Source of the DNA: an uncultured Pseudomonadota bacterium
GTDB lineage: Bacteria > Chloroflexota > UBA5177 > JAJPKF01
Direction of reading: 5' to 3'
Assembly (NCBI GenBank): GCA_963836045.1
Contig: CAWIIC010000004.1
Span: 77,283-141,282 of the forward strand
DNA: 64,000 bases
The notes below the pieces were generated by a model. It had not been told where the DNA came from, searched no databases, and saw nothing but the letters and a program-made list of their open reading frames with translations. Below are positions 23,676 through 36,182 of this stretch, in pieces (the first letter of the stretch is position 1; each line of letters begins with the position of its first letter). A program made the translations under genes and the position numbers.

Positions 23676-24703
23676 TTTCAGCCGGATCGTACGGGATTCC
23701 GTCGGCAGCAGGGGGAGTCGAGCGCCCGATCAAGCCGGCGACTGCCACGATTGTCAGCAGGTACGGCAGCATGGCCACCAGATACGTAGACACTTCGTAC
23801 GTGCCGATTGTGGTGCCGGCAAGCGTGATCGCCAGAGCCTGTCCGAAGCCGAACAGCAAACAAGCACCCATCGCGCCAAAAGGTGTCCATTTACCCACGA
23901 TCATAGCCGCGAGGGCGATGAAGCCGCGGCCGCCCGTCATGTTGTCGCTAAACAGCCCGTGCGGACCATTGAGCGCGAGGTAGGCACCAGCGAGACCCGA
24001 CAAAGCGCCCGACATAATGACTGCCATGTACCGCAGTCGTTGGACGTTGATACCAGCAGTATCAGACGCCCGCGGATGCTCCCCCACGGACCTGATCCGA
24101 AGACCCAGGGTCGTTCGGAACAGGAAGAAGTGCGCCGCAATCACCGATGCGAAGGCCGCGTATACCAGAGGATTTAGCTGAAACAGGATTGGCCCGAGAG
24201 CCAGAAACTGAATGTTGCTTAAGACGGGAATGCTGACGTTGGGGATTCCAGCCAGACTCGCTGGAGTTCCTTGAGACCCGTAAAGCGTGTAAAAGAGGTA
24301 GCTTGTAAGGCCCAACGCCAGTAGGTTGATGGCAATACCGCTGACCACCTGATTAGCCTGATATCGGATGCAGGCCCACGCATGGAGCCAGGCCATCAGG
24401 CTGCCCGCTACTACCGCCCCTAAGATTCCGATCAAAGCGGCGATGAGGCGGTGAAACATGAAGCAGTGATGCTGCTTTGTCCGCCGTGTACGCGCTGAAG
24501 AAGCAGGCGACCAACATCATGCCTTCCATCGCCACGTTGACCACACCCGACCGCTCCGATATTGTGCCGCCGACCGCGGCCAAGATCAGGGGCGCCGAAA
24601 ATGCCAGCGTGGTCTGCCACAGAAGCGGCTGTCGCAGCGTATTCCAGACCCCAAGACTCCAGAATCCGCTGGCGACGACCAGCAGCTGGCTCGATACGTT
24701 CAT
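23668..24703 (-). pseudogene. ABC transporter permease (BMP-system, second permease), frameshifted as assembled
   Basis: The N-terminal 116 aa ORF (24353-24703) is sensible up to ...[12 protein letters not shown]. The rest of the permease ([14 protein letters not shown]...[17 protein letters not shown]...) continues in ORF 23668-24459. The switch lies near 24440-24480. Confidence 0.8.
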
Positions 24704-25977
24704 ATTCCCGCTCGCTCCGCCGGGACGTCGGTTTCGGGCTTCGGGGTGATAAATCGAGTCAGGCTGTAACCCCGCAGTCCTAGATGACGGACAAGCGCCT
24801 CGGCTCCGATGAAGAAGATGATCAGACCCTCGATGATCTGAATAATATGAGTGTCAATATTGGCGCTGGCCTGCATATTAGTCTGACCGTGGCCAAGCGC
24901 CCCAAAGAGTATGGCGGCGAGGATCGCGCCCAGGGCGGTGTTCTTTCCTAGAAGTGCTACGGCGATGGCATCGAACCCATACGTATAGTTATCGAACGTA
25001 TCCGTGAGATTGCCGCCCACGCCAAACACGTATGACACCCCCGCTAGCCCGGCGAAGGCGCCGGAGATAACCAGAGTGAGCACGATGGTGCGGTTGACGT
25101 TAATTCCGGCATATCGAGCTGCTTTGATGTTAAAGCCGGTGGCCCGAATCCCGTAGCCCAAGGTGGTGCGGGACAGTATAAACCAGAACACGAGGCCACA
25201 AAACAGGGCCAGCAGAAACGCCACACTGAGCTGCGCTCCCGGGACCAGCGAGCTGGGGAGAATGATCGGGAACGTAACATTTACGTTTCGCGATGTTGGA
25301 TTTCCCGCCAGTGGCCCCTGCATGGGCCCCGGTGCGCCGGTGATCGAGTTGATGAGGAGATAGTGCATGAGATTTAGCGCGACGTAATTGAGCATCATCG
25401 TAGTGATGACTTCATGCGCGCCGCGGTATGCTTTGAGCAGCCCGGGAACCAGGCCCCAGAATCCGCCCGCTACGGCTCCGACGACAATGCAGACAGGCAG
25501 TAGGATCCATCCCGGCCAGTTCAAGGTGTATCCGACGAATGTTGAGGCTATGGCTCCGACATATAACTGACCCTCGGCGCCGATGTTGAACAGCCCACCC
25601 CGGAAGGCGAAGGCGACCGCGAACGCGGCGAACATGAGTGGGGTCGAGTAGACGAGAGTCTCCTGAATGTCGTAAGGGGTGCCGACGGCGCCAACCAACA
25701 AGTCCCAATACCCCTGAAGGGGCTGGGTCAGGCTCTTGAGCGCGATGGCCATGACGACAAAGCCCACAATCAATGCAAGCAGGATGGCGCCGAGGGGCAC
25801 CGCCAGCTCGCTCAGGCCGAGCCACGACTTCTTCGCCCCTCGTGGAGTCTGCGGCGGTGGAGGTGGTGCTTGGGAAGCAACTGGTGTCTTCGTGGTCTCC
25901 GTCAAAGGGCTCTCTCCGGCATGCTCGGCTCCTCTCCCACTGACCACCCGCCCTATTCTGAATGAACTATACCCCAA
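24700..25977 (-). CDS. ABC transporter permease (BMP-system, first permease)
   Basis: 425 aa with multiple TM segments and [12 protein letters not shown], typical of this permease family. It has a Pro-rich N-terminal extension, so the true start is uncertain. Confidence 0.85.
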
Positions 25978-26167
25978 TCCAGCGGCCTGACGGCAACTTG
26001 TAGGGATCGGTAGCCACAGACCTCGAAAACACCGAGCTGTCTACGCGAAGCTAGCGGAATAATGACAGACCCGGGGAGGGATTCTGCTAGAGCGAGATGT
26101 TGGCAGCGGCCTGCTCGAGCATCCTTGATGTCCGCTGGGCCTGCAGACCGGTGTATACTTCACCAAG

Positions 26168-26218
26168 ATGAGCCGGAATTCTACCTATTGGTATTGGCTG
26201 AGCGTGGGCATGGCGTGA
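26168..26218 (+). promoter_or_regulatory. Candidate leader peptide MSRNSTYWYWLSVGMA (Tyr-Trp-Tyr-Trp) of the aromatic amino acid operon
   Basis: Read directly: ATG AGC CGG AAT TCT ACC TAT TGG TAT TGG CTG AGC GTG GGC ATG GCG TGA. There is no Shine-Dalgarno site. A TATACT -10-like hexamer at 26154-26159 would place the transcription start at or next to the ATG, giving a leaderless message. Confidence 0.42.
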
Positions 26219-26257
26219 CGAGCCCGATCTGAGGCTCGGACCTCACGTTCTGCCCGT

Positions 26258-26291
26258 AACCAGAGACATGAGTGTCTCTGGTTTTTTGTTT
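26258..26291 (+). terminator. Intrinsic terminator (attenuator) between the leader peptide and aroF
   Basis: aaccagagac atgagt gtctctggtt followed by ttttgttt. A perfect 10 bp stem plus a U-run on the plus strand. There is no upstream plus-strand gene for it to terminate. Confidence 0.72.
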
Positions 26292-26325
26292 ACTTAAGCC
26301 CGGCCGACTATCAATGGAGCACATA

Positions 26326-27399
26326 ATGGCAGCAGTGGAGAGCAGAGACATGATCATCGTGATGCAGAGAAACGCCAGCCAGCAGCATGTCGAGAATGTG
26401 ATTTCTCACGTTCACGACATGGGTTACCGAGCCCATGTCTCCCAAGGAGAGGAAACGGTAATTATCGGCGTCATCGGGCATAGTCGTCCCGATCAGCTTC
26501 ATCCGCTGGCTGATCTGCCAGGAGTCGACCACATGGTGCCCGTCACCAAGCCCTACAAGCTGGCCAGCCGCGACTTCAGCCCCCTCAACAGCCTCATCCA
26601 GGTAGGGGACGTCACGTTTGGTACTGAGGAAGTCGTGGTGATGGCAGGCCCGTGCGCCGTCGAGAAAGAAGATCTCCTGTTCGAGATAGCTCACAAAGTT
26701 AAGGCCGAAGGCGTTCAGATCTTGCGGGGAGGCGCCTTCAAACCAAGGTCATCGCCCTACAGCTTTCAGGGTTTGGGTAAACGTGGGCTCGAGATGCTGG
26801 ACGCGGTCCGGCGGGAAACAGGGTTACAAATCGTCTCCGAGGTCTTGTCTGAGGATCAGGTTGACCTAGTTTGCCGTCACGTCGACATTCTGCAGATCGG
26901 AACTCGCAACATGCAGAACTTTGCTTTGCTGCAGGCCGCCGGCAGGAGCGGCCATCCCGTTCTCCTCAAGCGAGGAATGAGCGCTACCCTCGAGGAATTC
27001 TTACAAGCGGCCGAGTACATCCTGGCCAACAACAATCCCAACGTCATCTTGTGCGAACGCGGCATCCGCACCTTTGAAACGGCGACCCGCAACACATTGG
27101 ATATTAGTGCTGTCCCAGTACTGAAGGACCTCACCCACCTGCCAATCGTGATCGATCCGAGTCAAGCTACCGGAAAGTGGAGCTATGTTGGCCCGGTCGC
27201 CCGGGCCGCCGTCGCGGCTGGGGCGGATGGTTTGCTGGTCGAAGTGCATTCGCGGCCTGCGGAAGCACTGTCCGACGGGGCACAGTCACTCAAAATCAGT
27301 CGATTCCACGATCTCATGATCGAGCTGCGCGCGATCGCGAAGGCGATCGGCCGCTCAGTGCCGGCCTCATGCGAACCGGTATCGTCGGCCTCGGCCTGA
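26326..27399 (+). CDS. aroF: 3-deoxy-7-phosphoheptulonate (DAHP) synthase, type I-beta, with an N-terminal ferredoxin-like/ACT-like regulatory domain
   Basis: MIIVMQRNASQQHVENVISHVHDMGY regulatory domain, then GPCAVE, LRGGAFKPRSSPYSFQGLG, KRG, DPSQATG. The start is placed at ATG 26326 (GGAG 5 nt upstream). ATG 26314 is an alternative. The ORF-track start at 26272 lies inside the terminator. Confidence 0.9.
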   Translation: MAAVESRDMIIVMQRNASQQHVENVISHVHDMGYRAHVSQGEETVIIGVIGHSRPDQLHPLADLPGVDHMVPVTKPYKLASRDFSPLNSLIQVGDVTFGTEEVVVMAGPCAVEKEDLLFEIAHKVKAEGVQILRGGAFKPRSSPYSFQGLGKRGLEMLDAVRRETGLQIVSEVLSEDQVDLVCRHVDILQIGTRNMQNFALLQAAGRSGHPVLLKRGMSATLEEFLQAAEYILANNNPNVILCERGIRTFETATRNTLDISAVPVLKDLTHLPIVIDPSQATGKWSYVGPVARAAVAAGADGLLVEVHSRPAEALSDGAQSLKISRFHDLMIELRAIAKAIGRSVPASCEPVSSASA

Positions 27400-28214
27400 T
27401 CGGGGCCTCTCTCGGTGGAGCACTTGTACGGGCCGGTTATGAGGTGGCCGGATTCGACCTTAAACCGATCAATGCCCACGCCGCTTTCGACCGCGGGCTC
27501 GTGTCCAGAGTGTCCTCCTCGCTGGAGGAAGCAGTAGGTGACGTCGATCTGGCCATACTCGCCATGCCCTTGCAAGCCACCGTATCTATGCTTCCGCGAG
27601 TGTCGGCCATGATGCCTCGAGGCTCGCTCATCACTGACGTCGCAAGCGTAAAGGGTCCCGTGATCGACGAGATGAACACTCTTTCGAGGGTGCGCGCAGT
27701 GGGCGGACATCCCATCGCAGGGCGGGAAACGAGTGGGCCCGAACACGCGGATCCAGACATATTTCGCGGAGCCACCTACGCGGTCGTGCCGACGGAACGG
27801 TCCGACGCGGCATCTGTACACGTGATCGACGATCTGGCGAGGGCCATCGGATCGCTTCCGATTCAGGTCTCAGCCGAGCAACACGACACCACCCTCGCCC
27901 GCACGAGCCATTTGCCGCAGCTTCTGTCGACAGCGCTCGCCGCGACACTCGCCGCCGACTGCACATCTACTCTCGCGGGGCAGGGCCTGCGTGACATGAC
28001 GCGGCTGGCTGGGAGTAACGAGTTCTTGTGGGCCGAGATATTCGAGGTGAATTCCGTCAATGTTCTCGCCGCTCTTAGGGAGCTGATGGCCACGCTCGAG
28101 GGATGGGAAGCCCTTCTGAACACAGCTGACGCGCCCGGTCTGGCGCGAGCCCTCACCGCAGGACGTGCCGCGGTCTCGACAACACGCGTAACCCGACCCG
28201 AGGCAACGACATGA
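27369..28214 (+). CDS. tyrA: Prephenate (or arogenate) dehydrogenase
   Basis: MRTGIVGLGLIGASLGGAL Rossmann motif, GGHPIAGRE, SHLPQLLS. The start is taken at the in-frame ATG 27369. The upstream part of ORF 27177 overlaps aroF and looks non-coding. Confidence 0.85.
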   Translation: MRTGIVGLGLIGASLGGALVRAGYEVAGFDLKPINAHAAFDRGLVSRVSSSLEEAVGDVDLAILAMPLQATVSMLPRVSAMMPRGSLITDVASVKGPVIDEMNTLSRVRAVGGHPIAGRETSGPEHADPDIFRGATYAVVPTERSDAASVHVIDDLARAIGSLPIQVSAEQHDTTLARTSHLPQLLSTALAATLAADCTSTLAGQGLRDMTRLAGSNEFLWAEIFEVNSVNVLAALRELMATLEGWEALLNTADAPGLARALTAGRAAVSTTRVTRPEATT

Positions 28215-29497
28215 AGTGGCGAGTGTCCCGCTCCCAGGTGGGAGGGACCGCGACAGTACCGGGGGATAAATCCGTGGCCCACCGGTCCTTGATGGTTGCT
28301 GCCATCGCCAGCGGCACTTCCCATATCGAAAACCTGCCCGCCGGCGAGGATGTGGCGGCCACAAGACGATGTGTGGAGGCCTTGGGCGCACAAATCAGTC
28401 AGACTAACGGCACCCTCGAGATCAACGGTGGAGAGCTTCGCACCCCCGAAGGGACGCTCGATGCCGGTAACTCCGGCACCACGACACGGTTAATGGCGGG
28501 CATTCTGGCCGGACAGTCGTTTGAATCGCGGATGGACGGCGATGAGTCTCTGCGACGCCGGCCCATGTCCAGAGTCATCGAGCCTTTGTCGGCGATGGGT
28601 GCTGAGATCGACGCCAAGAGGGGCCGCCTGCCTCTTCGCATTACCGGGGGACAGCTCCGGGGAATCTCCTATCAGCTGCCGGTCGCCAGCGCTCAGGTGA
28701 AGAGCTGCGTTCTTCTGGCCGGCCTCTTCGCCACAGGTACCACCTCGGTGCTGGAGTCTATTCCGTCACGCGATCATACCGAGAGGATGTTGAGGTCTGC
28801 TGGTATCCAGGTGTCGGCCACATCAGGCCAAGCTCTGAAGATCTCGGTGACAGGTGGACAACGGCCACGCGCAATCGACATTACGATTCCGGGAGACATG
28901 TCGTCTGCGGCATTCCTGTTTACGGCCGCGGGACTACTGGGCACAACGGTTGAGGTTCGAGGAGTCGGAACCAATCCGACCAGGACTGGGTTCCTCAAGG
29001 TTCTGGAGCGGATGGGATGCGCTGTACGGGTGACCAACGAGCGACTGACTGGAGGCGAGCCGGTAGGCGACGTCGAGGTGCGCGGTCCTGTTACATATCC
29101 GGTGACACTCACCGGGCCAGACGTGCCCTCGTTGGTCGACGAGCTTCCCCTCGTCGCTCTTCTGGCCACAGCTACGCCAGGAAGTTCCGAAGTGACCGGA
29201 GCGGCCGAGCTTCGGGTCAAGGAGACGGACCGAATCGCCGCCGTAGTTGAACAGCTAAGCCGGCTAGGATCTGATATCAGGGAGCTCCCCGACGGGTTCG
29301 TGGTGACAGGACCAACCTCGCTTCGCGGTACCACCTGCAGCAGTCTCAAAGACCACAGGCTCGCGATGATGCTGGCCGTCGCCGGACTGTCTGCCCGTGG
29401 CGAGACAGTCGTGGATGATGCCGAGGTCGCCGCCGTTTCCTTTCCGGCCTTCCCCAACGTTTTGAAACAGCTTGGAGGGAGAGTGGAAGTTGAGTAG
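28211..29497 (+). CDS. aroA: 3-phosphoshikimate 1-carboxyvinyltransferase (EPSP synthase)
   Basis: 428 aa. VPGDKSVAHRSLM, AGNSGTTTRLMAG, LRRRPM, KETDRI, DHRLAMM. Confidence 0.93.
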   Translation: MKWRVSRSQVGGTATVPGDKSVAHRSLMVAAIASGTSHIENLPAGEDVAATRRCVEALGAQISQTNGTLEINGGELRTPEGTLDAGNSGTTTRLMAGILAGQSFESRMDGDESLRRRPMSRVIEPLSAMGAEIDAKRGRLPLRITGGQLRGISYQLPVASAQVKSCVLLAGLFATGTTSVLESIPSRDHTERMLRSAGIQVSATSGQALKISVTGGQRPRAIDITIPGDMSSAAFLFTAAGLLGTTVEVRGVGTNPTRTGFLKVLERMGCAVRVTNERLTGGEPVGDVEVRGPVTYPVTLTGPDVPSLVDELPLVALLATATPGSSEVTGAAELRVKETDRIAAVVEQLSRLGSDIRELPDGFVVTGPTSLRGTTCSSLKDHRLAMMLAVAGLSARGETVVDDAEVAAVSFPAFPNVLKQLGGRVEVE

Positions 29498-29512
29498 CGG
29501 CGGAATGCAACG

Positions 29513-30364
29513 ATGAGAGCGCATCGTTACAGATTAGCGGTCATCGGAGATCCTGTGGGACACAGCCTCTCTCCACGGATCCATACGGCTGCGCTGGCCG
29601 CGGCCTCGCTACGGGGCACGTACAGTGGAATTCGAGTCACCGCACGCGACCTGCCTGCGGCCATAGCCTCGATGCGGGTTGGGTACGATGGCTTCAACGT
29701 GACAATACCGCACAAGGAAGCGATGGTTGCGCTCGTCGACCGGCTGGACTCGCTTGCGGCCGAGACCGGAGCAGTCAATACCGTCAAACATGTTGGCCGT
29801 TCGCTCATCGGCTACAACACAGACGTAACGGGATTCGGCAGGTTGTTCGACAGGTTGGTCTTGATCGCCGAGAACCGTGTACGGGACGTCGCCCTGGTTC
29901 TAGGAGCCGGTGGGGCCAGTCGGGCTACCGTCGCCTCGCTCCAGACCCGTGGATGGACAGTCGTGATCGCCAACCGCACGCCAGAACGAGCCTTTCGCGC
30001 GTTTGGGCGGGGTGCGCACGTGATTCCGCTCGACGCTCGGGAGGTTCAGGCTGCACTTGACGTTGCGGGCGTGCTGGTCAACACTACCTCGGTTGGAATG
30101 GGGGAGATCAGCGACTCTCCGCTCCCGCGTGGCGTGCACCTCGATTCGCAGATCACGGTCTGCGACTTGGTATACAGCCCGCTCGACACGGCGCTGCTCC
30201 GTCATGCCCGTAAAGCGCACTGTCCAACGGTAGACGGCCTCGAATTTCTCATCGCTCAGGCAGCCGATTCCTTCTATCTGTGGACGGGCTCACGTCCTGA
30301 CGAAGTGGCCATGCGTCGGGCCGCCGGAAGCGCAAGCACGGCCACGGCCCAAGTCGCCTCATGA
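29513..30364 (+). CDS. aroE: Shikimate dehydrogenase
   Basis: 283 aa. VIGDPVGHSLSPRIH, FNVTIPHKE, NTDVTGF, LGAGGASRA. Confidence 0.9.
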   Translation: MRAHRYRLAVIGDPVGHSLSPRIHTAALAAASLRGTYSGIRVTARDLPAAIASMRVGYDGFNVTIPHKEAMVALVDRLDSLAAETGAVNTVKHVGRSLIGYNTDVTGFGRLFDRLVLIAENRVRDVALVLGAGGASRATVASLQTRGWTVVIANRTPERAFRAFGRGAHVIPLDAREVQAALDVAGVLVNTTSVGMGEISDSPLPRGVHLDSQITVCDLVYSPLDTALLRHARKAHCPTVDGLEFLIAQAADSFYLWTGSRPDEVAMRRAAGSASTATAQVAS

Positions 30365-30419
30365 TCGGAACATATCTGGTTGAGCGTCCGGGCAAGGACT
30401 TCTCCATCGGCAATGGCTC

Positions 30420-31574
30420 ATGAGCGGTTCGGTATTCCGCTTCTTGACAGCGGGTGAGTCCCATGGACCAGCATTGACTGGAATCGTGGATGGAGTACCG
30501 GCCGGTCTCGAGTTGTCGGAAGAAAGCGTCAACCTCGATTTGCGGCGTCGTCAGGGAGGATACGGGCGATCGGGACGCCAGGTAATCGAGAAGGATTCAA
30601 TCCAGTTTTTGGGCGGCGTTGCCCATGGCAAGACAACGGGAGGTCCGATCGCGCTTCGTATCGACAATCGGGACTGGAAGAACTGGGAGAACAAGGTAGT
30701 CCCCGTGATGAAGATTCCGCGGCCAGGACATGCCGATCTGGCGGGAGCCGTCAAGTACGGGCACGATGACTTGCGGCTGGTTCTGGAGCGCGCTAGTGCT
30801 CGAGAGACTGCCATGCGAGTAGCGGTGGGAGCCATCGCCCGGAGGCTGCTCGACGAATTCGGTATCCTCGTCGCCAGTCAAGTGATTGCCATCGGCGAGG
30901 TTGAAGCCGAGCCGGGCGATCTTTCGGACCCGACGGTTCGAGAGCGGGTTGAGAGCTCCGAAGTTCGAGTGAGTGATAAATCGGCGGAACAAGACTTTAT
31001 CCAGTGCATTGACAACGCGCGTCGCTCTCGTGATACTGTTGGCGGAATCTGCTCGATTGAGGCCTTCAACGTCCCCGTGGGTCTCGGAAGTCACGTCCAG
31101 TGGGATCGAAAGCTCGATGGGCGTCTGGCGCAAGCGGTCATGAGCATTCAGGCTATCAAAGCCGTCGAGATCGGAAATGGCTTCGAAGGCGCTAGGACTC
31201 CCGGAAGTAGGCTCCATGATGCCATCTTCCCGGACGAGGAGGACAAGACCCACATAGATCCCGCCCGGCTACGCCGGGTCACCAACAATGCAGGAGGTCT
31301 CGAGGGCGGCATAACCAATGGTCAGCCGGTCGTCGTACGTCTGGCGATGAAGCCGATATCCACCCTTCTAAAGGGCATCGAGTCGGTTGACCTTAGCTCC
31401 GGCGAGGCCACGACCGCGAAATACGAGCGCTCGGATATTTGCGCGGTGCCCGCGGCCGGAGTGGTGGGCGAAGCCATGATTGCAATCGTTCTGGCCGACG
31501 CCTTCCTCGAAAAATTCGGTGGCGACAGTATGGCCGAGATTCAAGGCCGGTATGAGGCCGAGGTCCTCTCGTGA
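30420..31574 (+). CDS. aroC: Chorismate synthase
   Basis: 384 aa. FRFLTAGESHGPAL, RPGHADL, ERASARETA, GGLEGGITNGQP. Confidence 0.93.
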   Translation: MSGSVFRFLTAGESHGPALTGIVDGVPAGLELSEESVNLDLRRRQGGYGRSGRQVIEKDSIQFLGGVAHGKTTGGPIALRIDNRDWKNWENKVVPVMKIPRPGHADLAGAVKYGHDDLRLVLERASARETAMRVAVGAIARRLLDEFGILVASQVIAIGEVEAEPGDLSDPTVRERVESSEVRVSDKSAEQDFIQCIDNARRSRDTVGGICSIEAFNVPVGLGSHVQWDRKLDGRLAQAVMSIQAIKAVEIGNGFEGARTPGSRLHDAIFPDEEDKTHIDPARLRRVTNNAGGLEGGITNGQPVVVRLAMKPISTLLKGIESVDLSSGEATTAKYERSDICAVPAAGVVGEAMIAIVLADAFLEKFGGDSMAEIQGRYEAEVLS

Positions 31575-33226
31575 CTCACCTCATACTCAACGGATTTATG
31601 GGTACGGGCAAAAGCACGGTCGGGCGTTTGCTGGCCGGTCAGATGGGCCTCAGCTTCATCGACACCGACGACCTCGTCGAGGCGGAGTTAGGAACCACGA
31701 TAGCCGAGGCATTCACGTCGATTGGCGAGGCAAAATTCCGCGCGGTCGAGGCGGACGTGGTGAGATCCGTGTTGGCCCTGCCCTCGGCCGTCATCGCACT
31801 TGGCGGGGGATCGCTATTGAACCCCGACACGCGAGACATCGCAGAGAACGCAGGATTCGTGGTCACTCTGGTCTGTCAACCGGATGAGATTGTCGATCGC
31901 GTCGGCACCCTGAGCACGCGACCCCTTCTGTCCGGGGTCCCGGGCACCACGACCGCTGAACGTGTTCGGTCACTCCTTGGGTCCCGGGCTGAGGCATATG
32001 GCAGATATACTCAAGTTTCGACGTCAGCACGCTCCCCACGAAGTGTGGCTGCGGAAATCGTCGGACTCTACCAAGAGAGGATCGGAGCGAATGGAGTCGC
32101 GGATCGTAGCCATCTAGTAGCGAGCCTCCTCACCGAGTCATCGAAACGATCGGCCGTGTTAGCCGGGGCCCTGGAAGATTCGCTGACACATCCCTCAGTC
32201 GATTCGCTCTTGACTCGGGGAGGGCTAGCGGTGCTGATATCGGATGAAGTCGTCCACGAGAAGCACGGACAACGCGCCCGGTCAGCAATCGAGGAGCATG
32301 GCGCGCATGTCATCGACATTGTGGTGCCGGCAGGGGAGCAGCATAAAGTTCTAGCGACGGTTGAGGGCGTATACCATCACTGTCAGCAGGCGAATCTTGA
32401 CCGCGAGTCAGTGGTCATGGCGCTCGGCGGCGGAGTGATTACCGACATGGCGGGGTTCGTCGCTGCCACGTACCTTCGAGGGCTGCCTTTGGTCTTGCTC
32501 CCTTCTACGCTTCTCGCTCAAGTTGATGCGGCGATCGGAGGCAAGACCGGACTCGACTTCGGGAGTGCCAAGAACAGCGTTGGGGCGTTCTACCCAGCGG
32601 ATGCCGTGGTGCTCGACGCGTCGCTGCTACGTACGCTGCCGCCGTCGTTTCTGTCTGACGGCCTCTCCGAGATGGTGAAGATGGGGATCATCTGGGACAA
32701 GGAGCTGCTGGAGCATCTCGAAGGGCTGCCGAACGCAGCGGGCATCCTCGAAAGAACCGACATCATAGAACGCGCGGTCAGGGACAAAGTGGAGATCGTG
32801 CGGCAGGATCCGAACGAGCGCGGCCTGCGAGCGATCCTGAATTTCGGCCACACCGCGGGACACGGGATCGAAGCAGCTTCCGGCTACCACCTTTCCCACG
32901 GCTCGTCGGTTGCGTTGGGCATGCTGGTCGCGACTCACGTTGCAGTCGAACTCGGCGTATGCCGTTCCGGACTGCTCGACCGGCTCGTGACTGTACTCAG
33001 GAAGTTCGATCTGCCCATTGCCCGTCCCGCTTTGGACCTGGAGGAGGTCTTACGCGTAGTGTCTTACGACAAAAAGCGACGCGGAAATGAAATTCGAATG
33101 GTGCTGCCCGAAGTGCCCGGCAGAGCAATCGTCCAGACCGTGGGGGCAGATGTTCTGAGGCGGGCATTGGCGGCTCTACCAGAGACGAACGAGCTGGCTC
33201 ATGTCCCGTACACCGGCGGAGATTGA
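31571..33226 (+). CDS. aroKB: Bifunctional shikimate kinase / 3-dehydroquinate synthase fusion
   Basis: 551 aa. N-terminal [15 protein letters not shown]...DTDDLVE (AroK). C-terminal [53 protein letters not shown] (AroB). GTGA overlap with the aroC stop. Confidence 0.88.
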
Positions 33227-33665
33227 CTTGACAATTAACTGTGTCCTCGTTCTGCATGGTCCCAATCTGAATCTGCTCGCCAAACGGGAGCCAGAGATCT
33301 ACGGGACTATCAGCCTGCCTGATATCGTGGATAAGCTACGCGTGCAGGCCGAAGGTCAGGGCGTTGAGCTTCGTTCAATACAGTCCAACCACGAAGGAGG
33401 ACTGATTGACGCGATTCACGAAGCGGAGGACTGGGCACAGGGAGCGGTAATCAATCCCGGAGCATACGGCCACACTAGTTATGCCCTCCGCGACGCCATT
33501 GCCGCTGTTTCATACCCCTTTGTAGAAGCTCATATGTCGAACGTGTATGCCCGCGAAGAGTTCCGGCGAAGGTCAGTTATTGCCGCAGTGTGTCGCGGCC
33601 AGATCACTGGCTTCGGCTGGCGAAGCTACGCGCTCGCGCTCGATGCCTTACTGGCGAACGGCTGA
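33201..33665 (+). CDS. aroQ: Type II 3-dehydroquinate dehydratase
   Basis: [46 protein letters not shown] 33228, just after the aroKB stop, is an alternative start. Confidence 0.9.
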
Positions 33666-33666
33666 C

Positions 33667-34020
33667 GTGCGGGCTATCCGCGGCGCAATAACCGCGAATG
33701 ACAATACGGCCAAAGCAATAGAGGAGGCTACATGTGAAATGCTTCGTACCATCGAGCAGCGCAACGGGATTGGCCCGGAGTCAATAATCAGCGCGTTCTT
33801 TAGCCTCACTCCGGACCTGAATGCCACATTTCCGGCCAGGGCCGCGCGGGGGATCGGCTGGGGGGACGTTCCCATGCTGGACACCGTCGAGCTTGACGTT
33901 CCCGGGTCGCTAAGAAGAACGATTCGCGTGCTGGTACACGTCGACCACGATGGCCCGGTTCATCACGCCTACCTGCGCGAGGCCGAGATCCTAAGACCTG
34001 ACTTAGTGGAGAAAGAGTGA
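33667..34020 (+). CDS. aroH: Chorismate mutase, AroH (monofunctional, B. subtilis) class
   Basis: VRAIRGAITANDNTAKAIEEATCEMLRTIEQRNG...FFSLTPDLNATFPA...VRVLVHV. The start is taken at GTG 33667, right after the aroQ stop. The upstream part of ORF 33547 overlaps aroQ. Confidence 0.8.
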   Translation: MRAIRGAITANDNTAKAIEEATCEMLRTIEQRNGIGPESIISAFFSLTPDLNATFPARAARGIGWGDVPMLDTVELDVPGSLRRTIRVLVHVDHDGPVHHAYLREAEILRPDLVEKE

Positions 34021-35531
34021 CTCGATCGTCGACGATCAACGACGCGGCATACTATCCAGGATGGGAGTCGGTACGCGACCTGCCTGCAATGCCCGGAACA
34101 GTGACGATTCAACGTGACATCATGGCCGATCTCGACACACCTGTGTCGGCCTTCCTCAAGATCCGCGAGGGGTCTCTAAGCTTCTTGTTGGAAAGCGTCG
34201 AGGGCGGCGAGCGCGTGGGCAGATACTCTTTTATCGGAAATGGCAGCTGGCGGTGGGATTTGGCAGGCCCGCCCTCAGACAACCCCGCGGCCACCGCGCC
34301 GGCCGCGGCAGGGATCAGCCCGGCCACGTATCAGGATCTCAGGGATCGGCTCGACGCCATGCGGCCCGCATTTCCTTCCGAGGATGCCCGCTTTGACGGT
34401 GGCGCCATCGGTTACCTCGCGTACGAGGCCATCCATCATGTCGAGCGCATTCCCGCTCCCGGACGTGACGTTCTACACGTGCCCGACGGTATATTCATGG
34501 GCGTCGATACCCTGCTGGTGTTCGACCACCTCCGGCATACCATTCGGGTCATCAGCCATATGCGGCTGGACGAACCTCGCGAAGACGCGTACACGCAGGC
34601 CATTGAACGCATCGACAACCTCGTGTCCAAGTTGCGTGAGGCGGTGTCTGAGGAAGCATATGCAGATTCCCCCAGGACCGGCGTCGGATCAATAGCTCAA
34701 CCTCGCTCGAACGTTTCTCCTAAAGAATTCGCCGATATGGTGATCAAGGCGAAGGAGTACATCAAAGCCGGAGACATTTATCAGGTGGTGCTTTCCCAAC
34801 GCCTGACAATTCCACTTTCAGGCGAGGCCTTCACCCTCTACCGAGCGCTCCGCACCGTCAGCCCTTCGCCATACATGTACTTTCTGGATTTCGGGGATCA
34901 TCAGGTAGTCGGAGCATCGCCCGAGCTGCTGGTTCAGGTAGAAAAAGGAACAGTGACAGGCAGGCCCATCGCCGGCACCCGCCATCGAGGACGGGATCCT
35001 GAGGAGGACAACGCCCTGGCTGCAGAGCTGCTGGCCGACGAGAAAGAGCGGGCCGAGCACATCATGTTGCTGGATCTGGCGCGCAATGATCTCGGCCGCG
35101 TGAGTGTCCCCGGCTCCGTCAAAGTGGGGCAGCTGATGGAGGTAGAGCGCTTCTCGCACGTCATGCATATCATTTCGGACGTCACGGGCCAGCTACGCTC
35201 GGACCGGACCGCCGACGACGCGCTGTGGGCGACGTTCCCCGCGGGCACATTGTCCGGAGCGCCGAAAATTCGGGCCATGGAGATCATCTCGGAGCTCGAG
35301 AGAGACCGTCGCGGCCCTTATGGCGGTGCGGTCGGCTTTCTCACCCCGGGAGGCGACCTCGAATTCGCCATCACAATCCGCACAGCCGTGATCAAAGACG
35401 GGTTGGTACACGTTCAATCCGGCGCCGGAATCGTCGCCGACTCCGTGCCTGAGCGGGAGTACGAGGAATCTATGAACAAAGCCCGAGCCATGCTCCTGGC
35501 GGCCGGCGCCTCTCAGCGCCGACGCACGTAG
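34017..35531 (+). CDS. trpE: Anthranilate synthase component I
   Basis: 504 aa. LLESVEGGE, GDIYQVVLSQR, SPSPYMYF, GSPELL, IAGT..RG, FPAGTLSGAPKIRAMEII, RGPYGGAVG. GTGA overlap with the aroH stop. Confidence 0.92.
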   Translation: MTRSSTINDAAYYPGWESVRDLPAMPGTVTIQRDIMADLDTPVSAFLKIREGSLSFLLESVEGGERVGRYSFIGNGSWRWDLAGPPSDNPAATAPAAAGISPATYQDLRDRLDAMRPAFPSEDARFDGGAIGYLAYEAIHHVERIPAPGRDVLHVPDGIFMGVDTLLVFDHLRHTIRVISHMRLDEPREDAYTQAIERIDNLVSKLREAVSEEAYADSPRTGVGSIAQPRSNVSPKEFADMVIKAKEYIKAGDIYQVVLSQRLTIPLSGEAFTLYRALRTVSPSPYMYFLDFGDHQVVGASPELLVQVEKGTVTGRPIAGTRHRGRDPEEDNALAAELLADEKERAEHIMLLDLARNDLGRVSVPGSVKVGQLMEVERFSHVMHIISDVTGQLRSDRTADDALWATFPAGTLSGAPKIRAMEIISELERDRRGPYGGAVGFLTPGGDLEFAITIRTAVIKDGLVHVQSGAGIVADSVPEREYEESMNKARAMLLAAGASQRRRT

Positions 35532-35552
35532 GGCTCGTATGGAGATGGCCCT

Positions 35553-36182
35553 ATGATTCTCCTAATCGACAACTACGACAGTTTTACGTTTAACCTGTAC
35601 CAGTTGATGACCAGCCTCGAAGCCGAGGTCGAGGTGGTTCGCAATGACCTGGTTGATATCGAGACCATAACCTCGATGGCACCCGAAGCGATCGTGATCT
35701 CTCCCGGCCCCGGAACACCATCGACTGCCGGAATTTCAAAAGAGGTGGTGCGCCACTTCGCTGCTGAGAAACCCATCTTTGGAGTGTGCCTTGGTCACCA
35801 GTGCATAGCCGAAGTCTATGGAGGCCTCATCACATCGGCGCCGGAGCTGATGCACGGCAAGAGCTCACCCGTGTATCACGCCGGACAGGGAGTGTTCGAC
35901 GGACTTCACAGCCCAATGGATGCCATCAGGTACCACTCGCTGACCCTCGAGCCGTCGACAGTCCCGGATTGCATCGAGGTAACCGCGCGAACTGCCAACG
36001 GTACGATCATGGGTCTTCGACATCGCGAACACGACGTCGAGGGTGTCCAGTTTCACCCTGAATCAGTCATGACACCGGAGGGACCACACCTCGTCGCCAA
36101 CTGGCTGGACAGAGTCTACGCGCGCACGCGCTCCTCAGAGACGCGGGCTAATCAGGAGCAGTCAAGTAGCACGACGTCGTGA
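35553..36182 (+). CDS. trpG: Anthranilate synthase component II / aminodeoxychorismate synthase glutamine amidotransferase
   Basis: 209 aa. ILLIDNYDSFTFNL, ISPGPGTP, GVCLGHQ, VQFHPES. Confidence 0.9.
   Translation: MILLIDNYDSFTFNLYQLMTSLEAEVEVVRNDLVDIETITSMAPEAIVISPGPGTPSTAGISKEVVRHFAAEKPIFGVCLGHQCIAEVYGGLITSAPELMHGKSSPVYHAGQGVFDGLHSPMDAIRYHSLTLEPSTVPDCIEVTARTANGTIMGLRHREHDVEGVQFHPESVMTPEGPHLVANWLDRVYARTRSSETRANQEQSSSTTS

Follow-up and report, generated by a model that had tools for sequence, protein, structure and literature searches.

What controls transcription of the aromatic amino acid operon that begins with aroF in a 64,000-nucleotide (nt) stretch of DNA from an uncultured Chloroflexota bacterium (GenBank assembly GCA_963836045.1, contig CAWIIC010000004.1, positions 77,283 to 141,282; hereafter the window)? 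The interval directly upstream of aroF contains a 16-codon open reading frame (ORF) with the consecutive codons TAT TGG TAT TGG (Tyr-Trp-Tyr-Trp), a nested hairpin (P1) whose 5′ arm includes the stop codon of the ORF, and an intrinsic terminator (T). The original prediction, made from the letters of the window, interpreted these parts as an attenuator for an aromatic supraoperon. Our comparison with related genomes supports that interpretation, as the ORF and its aromatic codons are conserved, the stems covary, and the unit always lies before aroF. Judging from the sequences of these relatives, we consider it probable (roughly 0.75) that transcription of the aroF-...-trpEG operon is attenuated through this element by a ribosome-mediated, leader-peptide mechanism. 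In that case, one 16-codon leader would set the full shikimate pathway together with the tyrA, chorismate mutase, and trpEG branches from the supply of charged tRNA-Tyr and tRNA-Trp. Positions are those of the window (Table 1), and relatives are cited by our genome (G) and locus (L) numbers.

Conservation of the leader ORF and its hairpins

We built a covariance model (R1) from five sequences of aroF upstream regions, with the window as one of the seeds. Of the 21 class genomes, 14 each contained a single sense-strand match to R1; a few weak antisense matches fell on the terminator. R1 also matched G098 and G092, which represent two more families of the phylum, as well as six metagenome contigs, including one identical to G002. 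A pattern scan of metagenomes returned mostly chance matches (6 real among 80 loci). Using an ORF scan of aroF loci, we added two further members, L051 (Chloroflexia) and L053 (Limnocylindrales). The orthologous set comprises 23 sequences, every one directly 5′ of aroF. The window scored 96.5 bits as a seed, and sixteen non-seed sequences scored between 24 and 92 bits. Within the window, the order of parts is that of the R1 family: an aromatic ORF, P1 with the stop codon either within its 5′ half or immediately ahead of P1, 0 to 6 nt, the terminator, and aroF. Leaders of relatives at aroF upstream regions include MTAWRDIWYWRRKGMT, MNAVGLATQTVEYGWYWWGVGRA, MALHGSASADRYYWFYRGIT, and MKIRQTHYYWYAYTGIT.

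In all members, the aromatic cluster is in frame with the start and stop codons of the leader, reading YWYW, WYW, WYWW, YYWF[YH], YYWW, YYYF, or FYF, with F, Y, or W at its fourth position. Changes within the cluster are exclusively synonymous or aromatic-for-aromatic; Tyr is encoded by either TAT or TAC and Phe by either TTT or TTC, such that only the third position varies. The N-terminal part of the leader diverges freely, and leaders are between 11 and 34 codons long. A Shine-Dalgarno site of GGAG/GAGG type occurs 5 to 12 nt before the start codon in 10 or more of 14 order-level relatives, and sigma-70-type promoters (TTGAC(T/A)-17 nt-TATACT) occur just 5′ of the leader in relatives at this level. 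The unit thus opens with a small ORF in which codons for the end products of the operon are clustered, and this ORF is conserved as coding sequence; the original prediction had proposed that absence of such conservation would count against it.

The amino acids encoded by the cluster were also compared with the genes that follow. At all 10 of the relatives' loci that were checked, as in the window, tyrA and trpEG are in the operon and both Tyr and Trp are in the leader. Trp is absent from the leaders of the lineages whose operon contains neither tyrA nor trpEG (G098; G092/L051/L053); their clusters are YYYF, YLF, and FYF. Across the loci compared, leader composition follows operon content, G020/G018 excepted. 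The gene order from aroF to trpG is the same in 10 related genomes.

Folding of positions 26160 to 26300 recovered both P1 and T at -55.6 kcal/mol, compared with -39.4 ± 3.3 kcal/mol for 200 dinucleotide shuffles (z = -4.96), none of which folded as well. The fold reproduced the nested stem that had been described around the leader stop codon, with all three of its pairings, as well as the strong terminator with its U-run at 26258-26291. The terminator stem reads AACCAGAGAC(A) / (T)GTCTCTGGTT and comprises 10 to 11 base pairs (11 pairs in a terminator scan); T is placed 35 nt 5′ of the aroF start. In an alignment of 21 sequences, 95.8% of cells were paired, versus 81.8% in shuffles and 36 to 45% when partners were slid, and changes on both sides occurred in 23 of the 28 pairs of P1 and T; none of 500 shuffles matched any of these measures, although the alignment was fitted to the model and so favours the structure, and the related sequences are not independent. 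Compensatory changes are still plain in the raw sequences. Both-side changes affected 11 of 12 outer and all 6 inner pairs of P1. T was present in every member, with 99% of its cells paired and both-side changes in 6 of its 10 pairs. The covariation indicates that P1 and T are real structures, and the recurrence of ORF, P1, and T in 23 orthologues is, on these comparisons, more than chance.

The P1 strand GGCAUGAC / GUCAUGCC is kept between classes even though the leaders read it in all three frames (GGC AUG ACG; GCA UGA; CAU GAC), and the constraint therefore acts on the RNA and not on the peptide. In order-level relatives, the inner 5′ arm and loop of P1 (ACGGUYCUGUAAG) and its C-rich 3′ bulge are conserved, and a further small hairpin (P0) covaries just 5′ of the aromatic codons; the only counterpart of P0 in the window is a weak one predicted by the fold. 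By eye, stop triplets shut all three frames within the 5′ half of P1 in G012 and similar orthologues; those in G012 are UAA in CAUAACG, UGA in GUGA, and UAA/UAG/UGA in the inner loop. The stops checked in P1 of the window are the leader UGA and a UGA in the -1 frame in the inner loop only.

The spacing of these parts is narrow across the 21 aligned sequences. The first aromatic codon begins 16 to 23 nt before P1 and the last ends 2 to 8 nt before it. Counted from the first base of P1, the position of the stop codon ranges from -4 to +21, and one member has its stop 4 nt ahead of P1; three members (G005, L129, and G015) stop at a triplet in the P1 inner loop. P1 itself spans 44 to 61 nt, and the spacer between P1 and T is 0 to 6 nt, with no overlap in any member. 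A bacterial ribosome usually covers the RNA from about 15 nt 5′ of the first A-site base to 12 nt 3′ of it. With this footprint assumed, a ribosome at the first aromatic codons would leave P1 undisturbed and have its front edge a few bases short of the P1 foot, and a ribosome at the stop codon would unwind at least the outer stem of P1.

Proposed mechanism and alternative explanations

Under the attenuator reading, transcription would start at, or a few bases before, the ATG of the 16-codon leader. With ample charged tRNA-Tyr and tRNA-Trp, the lead ribosome would pass YWYW into the 5′ arm of P1 and halt at the UGA; P1 would remain unfolded while the polymerase transcribes T, T would fold, and the transcript would end at a length of about 120 nt. 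When Tyr or Trp is short, the ribosome would instead stall at the sensor codons, 8 to 20 nt before P1, so that P1 would fold and the polymerase would read into aroF; the stalled ribosome would also melt P0. Between the stalled and unstalled conditions, no RNA states differ other than those of P1 and P0. We infer that the leader is translated, that folded P1 corresponds to read-through, and that P1 and T are physically linked. Folded P1 is assigned to read-through because sensible regulation of a biosynthetic operon requires it.

Several observations weigh against this reading. We modelled a ribosome at each of three places, namely the first and the last aromatic codon and the stop codon, by masking a footprint that extends from 15 nt upstream of the first A-site base to 12 nt past it, with and without the 3′ arm of the terminator transcribed. 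T stayed in the minimum-energy fold of all 21 members at every modelled ribosome position. Forbidding T cost 10.6 to 25 kcal/mol over all modelled states and 12.6 to 25 kcal/mol in the stalled states, these energies being thermodynamic and not kinetic; RNA folding alone would give the same outcome for a stalled and an unstalled ribosome. Complementarity between the T 5′ arm and any upstream segment was no better than in dinucleotide shuffles. In addition, the window has no Shine-Dalgarno site before the leader ORF and no good -35 element, and a consensus scan gave no full sigma-70 -35/-10 pair. The G020/G018 leader (YYWWF) carries Trp codons although aroF stands alone there. Finally, in G003/L007, the source of the nearest AroF (85% identity), neither a leader nor P1 nor a terminator precedes aroF; loss or replacement of the element must therefore have occurred within the family.

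Before its 3′ arm is transcribed, the T 5′ arm was predicted to be unpaired or to lie in small helices that differ by member, and its best duplexes with upstream RNA ranged from -1 to -19 kcal/mol, at varying places. The strand left free behind a stalled ribosome (the P0 5′ arm plus the 5′ end) was suggestive as an antiterminator in G012, G015, and G007; its mean z was -0.05, with nothing in the window, and it was rejected. The P1 5′ strand gave a mean z of -0.27. The P1 inner loop (mean z +0.20), the bulge, and the P1 3′ strand (mean z +0.37) were likewise rejected as partners, their complementarity being at chance or slightly avoided. Avoidance by the P1 3′ strand fits the proposed mechanism, because such pairing would give read-through in the fed state.

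The same procedure was applied to the aroF leaders of Anaerolineales (L009 and L026) as a positive control. In these leaders, the T 5′ arm forms a duplex of -26.1 kcal/mol (z = -4.9 and -5.7) with the codons that follow the aromatic ones; T was gone from the fold with the ribosome at the first aromatic codon and was back with the ribosome at the stop codon. The methods therefore detect a classical switch where one is present. The window's family shares with trpL, pheL, and hisL an intrinsic terminator that separates the leader ORF from the first gene, but no shared-strand antiterminator of the kind used by those leaders was found in it. That no antiterminator could be seen by eye had been offered as a caveat to the original prediction; it proved to be a real property of the family, as none emerged in the 21 members tested whereas the same tests found one in Anaerolineales. 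Based on these models, the window's leader family has no RNA antiterminator.

Since P1 never overlaps T, the link between them cannot be strand competition. P1 always abuts T while sharing no base with it, and the stall site abuts P1; from this geometry we infer a non-competitive, probably steric, link. Folded P1 would loop out about 50 nt and bring the foot of T to within 0 to 6 nt of the parked ribosome or the bulky P1 helix, and the lower terminator stem would then be unable to seat in the polymerase exit channel or to reach the RNA-DNA hybrid. The account would thus describe an attenuator without RNA strand competition, in which P1 reports the position of the ribosome and, when folded, suppresses the abutting terminator, either through the ribosome at the T foot or through P1 on the polymerase; we put this forward tentatively, as a possibility with the odds against it. 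The steric step from P1 to T is equally doubtful when taken by itself. It is our best guess and the weakest part of the account. Alternatively, folded P1 may act on the polymerase or bind a factor.

The element could instead be a classical attenuator, in which only the lower half of the T 5′ arm is held, for long enough to have an effect, by an antiterminator that is weak and confined to particular lineages; two candidate pairings can be drawn. Leader 5′-YUGGU-3′ can pair with 5′-ACCRG-3′ at the T foot in the window's family and order, as UUGGU with ACCAG in a coaxial extension of P1, and in G012 the helix is in register with P1; in RNAduplex, this leader/T-foot duplex reached -5.7 kcal/mol for the window and as much as -13 kcal/mol among relatives. 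The second candidate, the freed P1 3′ strand UUCUG with CAGAG, is present in the window's truncated fold with the ribosome at the stop codon. However, neither pairing is better than shuffles (mean z for the aromatic-codon region, -0.23; for the P1 3′ strand, +0.37, as above), their positions differ by member, and none is found in the G020, G098, and G092 lineages. Their energies of 5 to 13 kcal/mol compare with 14 to 28 kcal/mol for T, and the genuine antiterminator of the sister family reaches -26 kcal/mol with z of about -5. The logic is also reversed: the Trp-codon strand would lie under the stalled ribosome, for which reason, and because it is at chance, the UUGGU/ACCAG extension of P1 was dropped, and the P1 3′ strand would be free only when the ribosome is not stalled. 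We consider such a switch unlikely. If a weak cryptic pairing does suffice, the element would simply be one more uncatalogued aromatic leader.

P1 could also be regulatory in itself, by binding a protein or ligand or by acting in cis on the polymerase in the manner of HK022 put RNA, with the ORF only modulating its folding. The conservation of the P1 strand across classes despite three reading frames, and of the inner arm, loop, and C-rich bulge in order-level relatives, speaks for such an element, as does the lack of any overlap with T. Against it, P1 has no Rfam match at E ≤ 10, no protein that might bind it is linked to the locus, and the aromatic codons, the start signals, and the all-frame stops in the P1 5′ half would be superfluous unless translation gates P1. 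If translation does gate P1, this explanation becomes a version of the attenuator reading; as a separate account, it seems improbable.

It is very improbable that the ORF is fortuitous and untranslated and that the hairpins form a constitutive leaky terminator or an RNA-stability element, as the lack of a Shine-Dalgarno site and of a -35 element in the window might suggest, because 23 sequences keep an in-frame start, aromatic cluster, and stop inside or just before P1 while the N-terminal part diverges, with third-position-only variation of Tyr and Phe codons, Shine-Dalgarno sites in relatives, and leader content that tracks the operon.

Start signals, neighboring genes, and other features of the region

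The coordinates of the element and its neighbors are listed in Table 1. As predicted, the element lies between divergent ABC (ATP-binding cassette) transporter genes and the aroF operon, with a minus-strand permease gene upstream and aroF...trpG downstream.

Table 1. Positions of the leader element and neighboring genes in the window
Feature	Position	Strand	Remarks
ABC permease	24700-25977	-	Gene upstream of leader
-10 promoter hexamer TATACT	26154..26159	+	Same hexamer 5′ of leader in G002, G001, G012, and others
Leader ORF MSRNSTYWYWLSVGMA + TGA stop	26168..26218	+	16 codons; ATG 26168, TGA 26216-26218; probably leaderless or nearly so
Sensor codons TAT TGG TAT TGG (Tyr-Trp-Tyr-Trp)	26186..26197	+	Leader codons 7-10; aromatic cluster in frame in all members
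P1 nested hairpin	26206..26255	+	Outer stem 26206-26218 with 26243-26255; inner stem 26219-26224 with 26233-26238
P1 pairing GGGCA / TGCCC	26206-10 / 26251-55	+	Fold
P1 pairing CGTGA / TCACG	26214-18 / 26243-47	+	Fold
P1 pairing CGAGCC / GGCTCG	26219-24 / 26233-38	+	Fold
3′ bulge of P1	26239-26242	+	Fold
Intrinsic terminator T	26258..26291	+	Stem-loop 26258-26283, then T-run TTTTGTTT; begins 2 nt past P1
aroF, first gene of operon	26326..27399	+	DAHP (3-deoxy-D-arabino-heptulosonate 7-phosphate) synthase, N-terminal ferredoxin-like domain; Pfam DAHP_synth_1, DAHP_snth_FXD
Rest of operon: tyrA, aroA, aroE, aroC, aroK-aroB fusion, aroQ, aroH-type chorismate mutase, trpE, trpG	27177..36182	+	Pfam

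The leader ORF and its aromatic codons were found where the original prediction had placed them, and so was the TATACT hexamer; the lack of a Shine-Dalgarno site that it had reported was confirmed as well. It had further proposed that the message is leaderless. The distance from TATACT to the leader ATG is 8 nt in the window, 6 nt in G001, and 30 nt in G002. A leaderless start is plausible for the leaders of the window and G001 because the hexamer lies so close to the ATG in these two sequences; however, it is not a trait of the family, as relatives of the same order use Shine-Dalgarno sites. The start codon of aroF is preceded by GGAG 6 nt upstream, and the start of the gene, ATGGCAGCAGTGGAG, is identical in G002. 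Visual inspection of the window also gave a TTGTTT-17-TATCAA-like promoter match between T and aroF, which was set aside because relatives have nothing equivalent.

Beyond the leader UGA, the frame remains open for 35 codons through P1 and T (window 26216-26328), to a TAA at 26324-26326 that overlaps the aroF ATG (TAATG). Read-through of the UGA was dropped as a reading, since G002 has an early stop and the open frame is not conserved. A 9-codon ORF at 26268-26297 (AUG AGU GUC UCU GGU UUU UUG UUU ACU UAA) begins in the terminator loop after AGAG, and it has no counterpart in relatives.

Elsewhere in the genome (G000), pheA, which encodes prephenate dehydratase, lies outside the aromatic operon (contig C5:445600-446500, locus L255), where it overlaps the end of ilvD. 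No Phe leader was found before pheA at this locus, and pheA directly follows ilvD. A search of the genome for other candidates with an ORF, a hairpin, and an abutting terminator returned only one, on contig C10 (111988-112206, locus L256). This unit has a promoter, the ORF VQWIVVVVVA, a long hairpin, and an abutting terminator, with a 12-nt perfect Shine-Dalgarno sequence (AAAGGAGGUGAU), and it is kept in 14 of the 21 class genomes. Because the genes that follow it differ by genome (in G000, a birA-like ORF), it is probably a free-standing small gene, and it may encode a small hydrophobic peptide or be a small RNA instead of acting as a Val attenuator.

Comparison with known systems

We compared positions 24000 to 28000 of the window with the Rfam families, which include Trp_leader, Phe_leader, His_leader, and T-box, at E ≤ 10. 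The leader was unmatched, and three chance matches fell elsewhere in the stretch. At the gathering score, the relatives L087 and L103 gave no match, whereas L054 gave a T-box match, which indicates that the method works. A T-box or other known RNA family was therefore dismissed for the leader. A full-text literature search for leader-peptide attenuation in Chloroflexi returned no paper. On comparative evidence, the leader unit is an uncatalogued Chloroflexota family of a known type of switch, differing from that type in having no shared-strand antiterminator.

Aromatic leaders before aroF are not confined to this phylum. In a scan of 80 aroF loci from other phyla, we identified aromatic leaders in Deltaproteobacteria (e.g., MHTVRYYYYYYF...), in Brocadiaceae, in a Clostridia metagenome-assembled genome (MNRYFHYWLW...), and possibly in Paenibacillus (LYIYFSD). 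The corresponding small ORFs lie 5′ of FXD-type aroF, mostly with strong terminators, at L017, L023, L024, and L071 (Deltaproteobacteria-like), L077 and L085 (Brocadiaceae), L022 (Clostridia), and L059-L083 (Paenibacillus). Further examples are MHTVRYYYYYYFCPSHGNASGMRRL and MKHYAVFYYFKYYRGGS, and ...LYIYFSD is recurrent in Paenibacillus. None of the sampled aroF leaders from other phyla matched an Rfam family. As aromatic aroF leaders are already known, what differs in the window's family is a conserved register across classes without an antiterminator.

The window's leader resembles E. coli trpL-trpE and pheL-pheA (PMC11802643) in its clustered regulatory codons, in its terminator before the first structural gene, and in a stop codon placed such that a finishing ribosome would disrupt the upstream hairpin. 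In E. coli trpL, strand 3 belongs to both the 2:3 hairpin and the terminator. In the window's family, P1 takes the place of the 2:3 hairpin; unlike that hairpin, it ends 0 to 6 nt before T with no shared base, and the codons are for mixed amino acids. In Corynebacterium glutamicum, the aroR leader contains Phe-Tyr-Phe before the aroF operon, and stalling on it raises transcription of the operon (Neshat et al. 2014, as summarised in PMC11802643). Both leaders are short ORFs with consecutive aromatic codons 5′ of a DAHP synthase gene. However, aroR, described as a standard attenuator, belongs to a different phylum, and the likeness is limited to function and position; the window's leader would sense Tyr and Trp (plus Phe in relatives), precedes a ten-gene supraoperon that includes tyrA and trpEG, and has no antiterminator. 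In Acholeplasma, the uORFC-13-1 motif is a candidate Phe-codon upstream ORF just before the aroF terminator, with an extra base-paired substructure of unassigned role (PMC8632094). Compared by its description, uORFC-13-1 differs from the window's leader in its occurrence in Mollicutes and in its use of Phe only.

Read-through without a competing hairpin, which the geometry of the window would require, has analogies in two other systems. In E. coli pyrBI, a ribosome near the terminator blocks it, and the leader ORF runs through the terminator. In phage HK022, put is a cis-acting antiterminator RNA that acts on the polymerase. The likeness to both is one of analogy only; unlike pyrBI, the ORF of the window ends about 40 nt before T, and closeness of the ribosome to T would rely on P1 looping out the intervening RNA.

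A further comparison is within the phylum. The Anaerolineales aroF leader MD..KKYYFYYYFWWEE..RVD (L009 and L026) also precedes an FXD-type aroF followed by tyrA and aroA, and it too combines an aromatic leader with a terminator. It reads MD..KKY(Y/F)FYYYFWWEE..LLRVD, lies about 210 nt 5′ of aroF, and has no Rfam match. Unlike the window's family, it is a clear classical switch. The two families, one with its parts in fixed register but no antiterminator and the other of textbook design on the same gene, form a natural pair for the question of whether a stalled ribosome or a neighboring helix can suppress an intrinsic terminator without strand competition.

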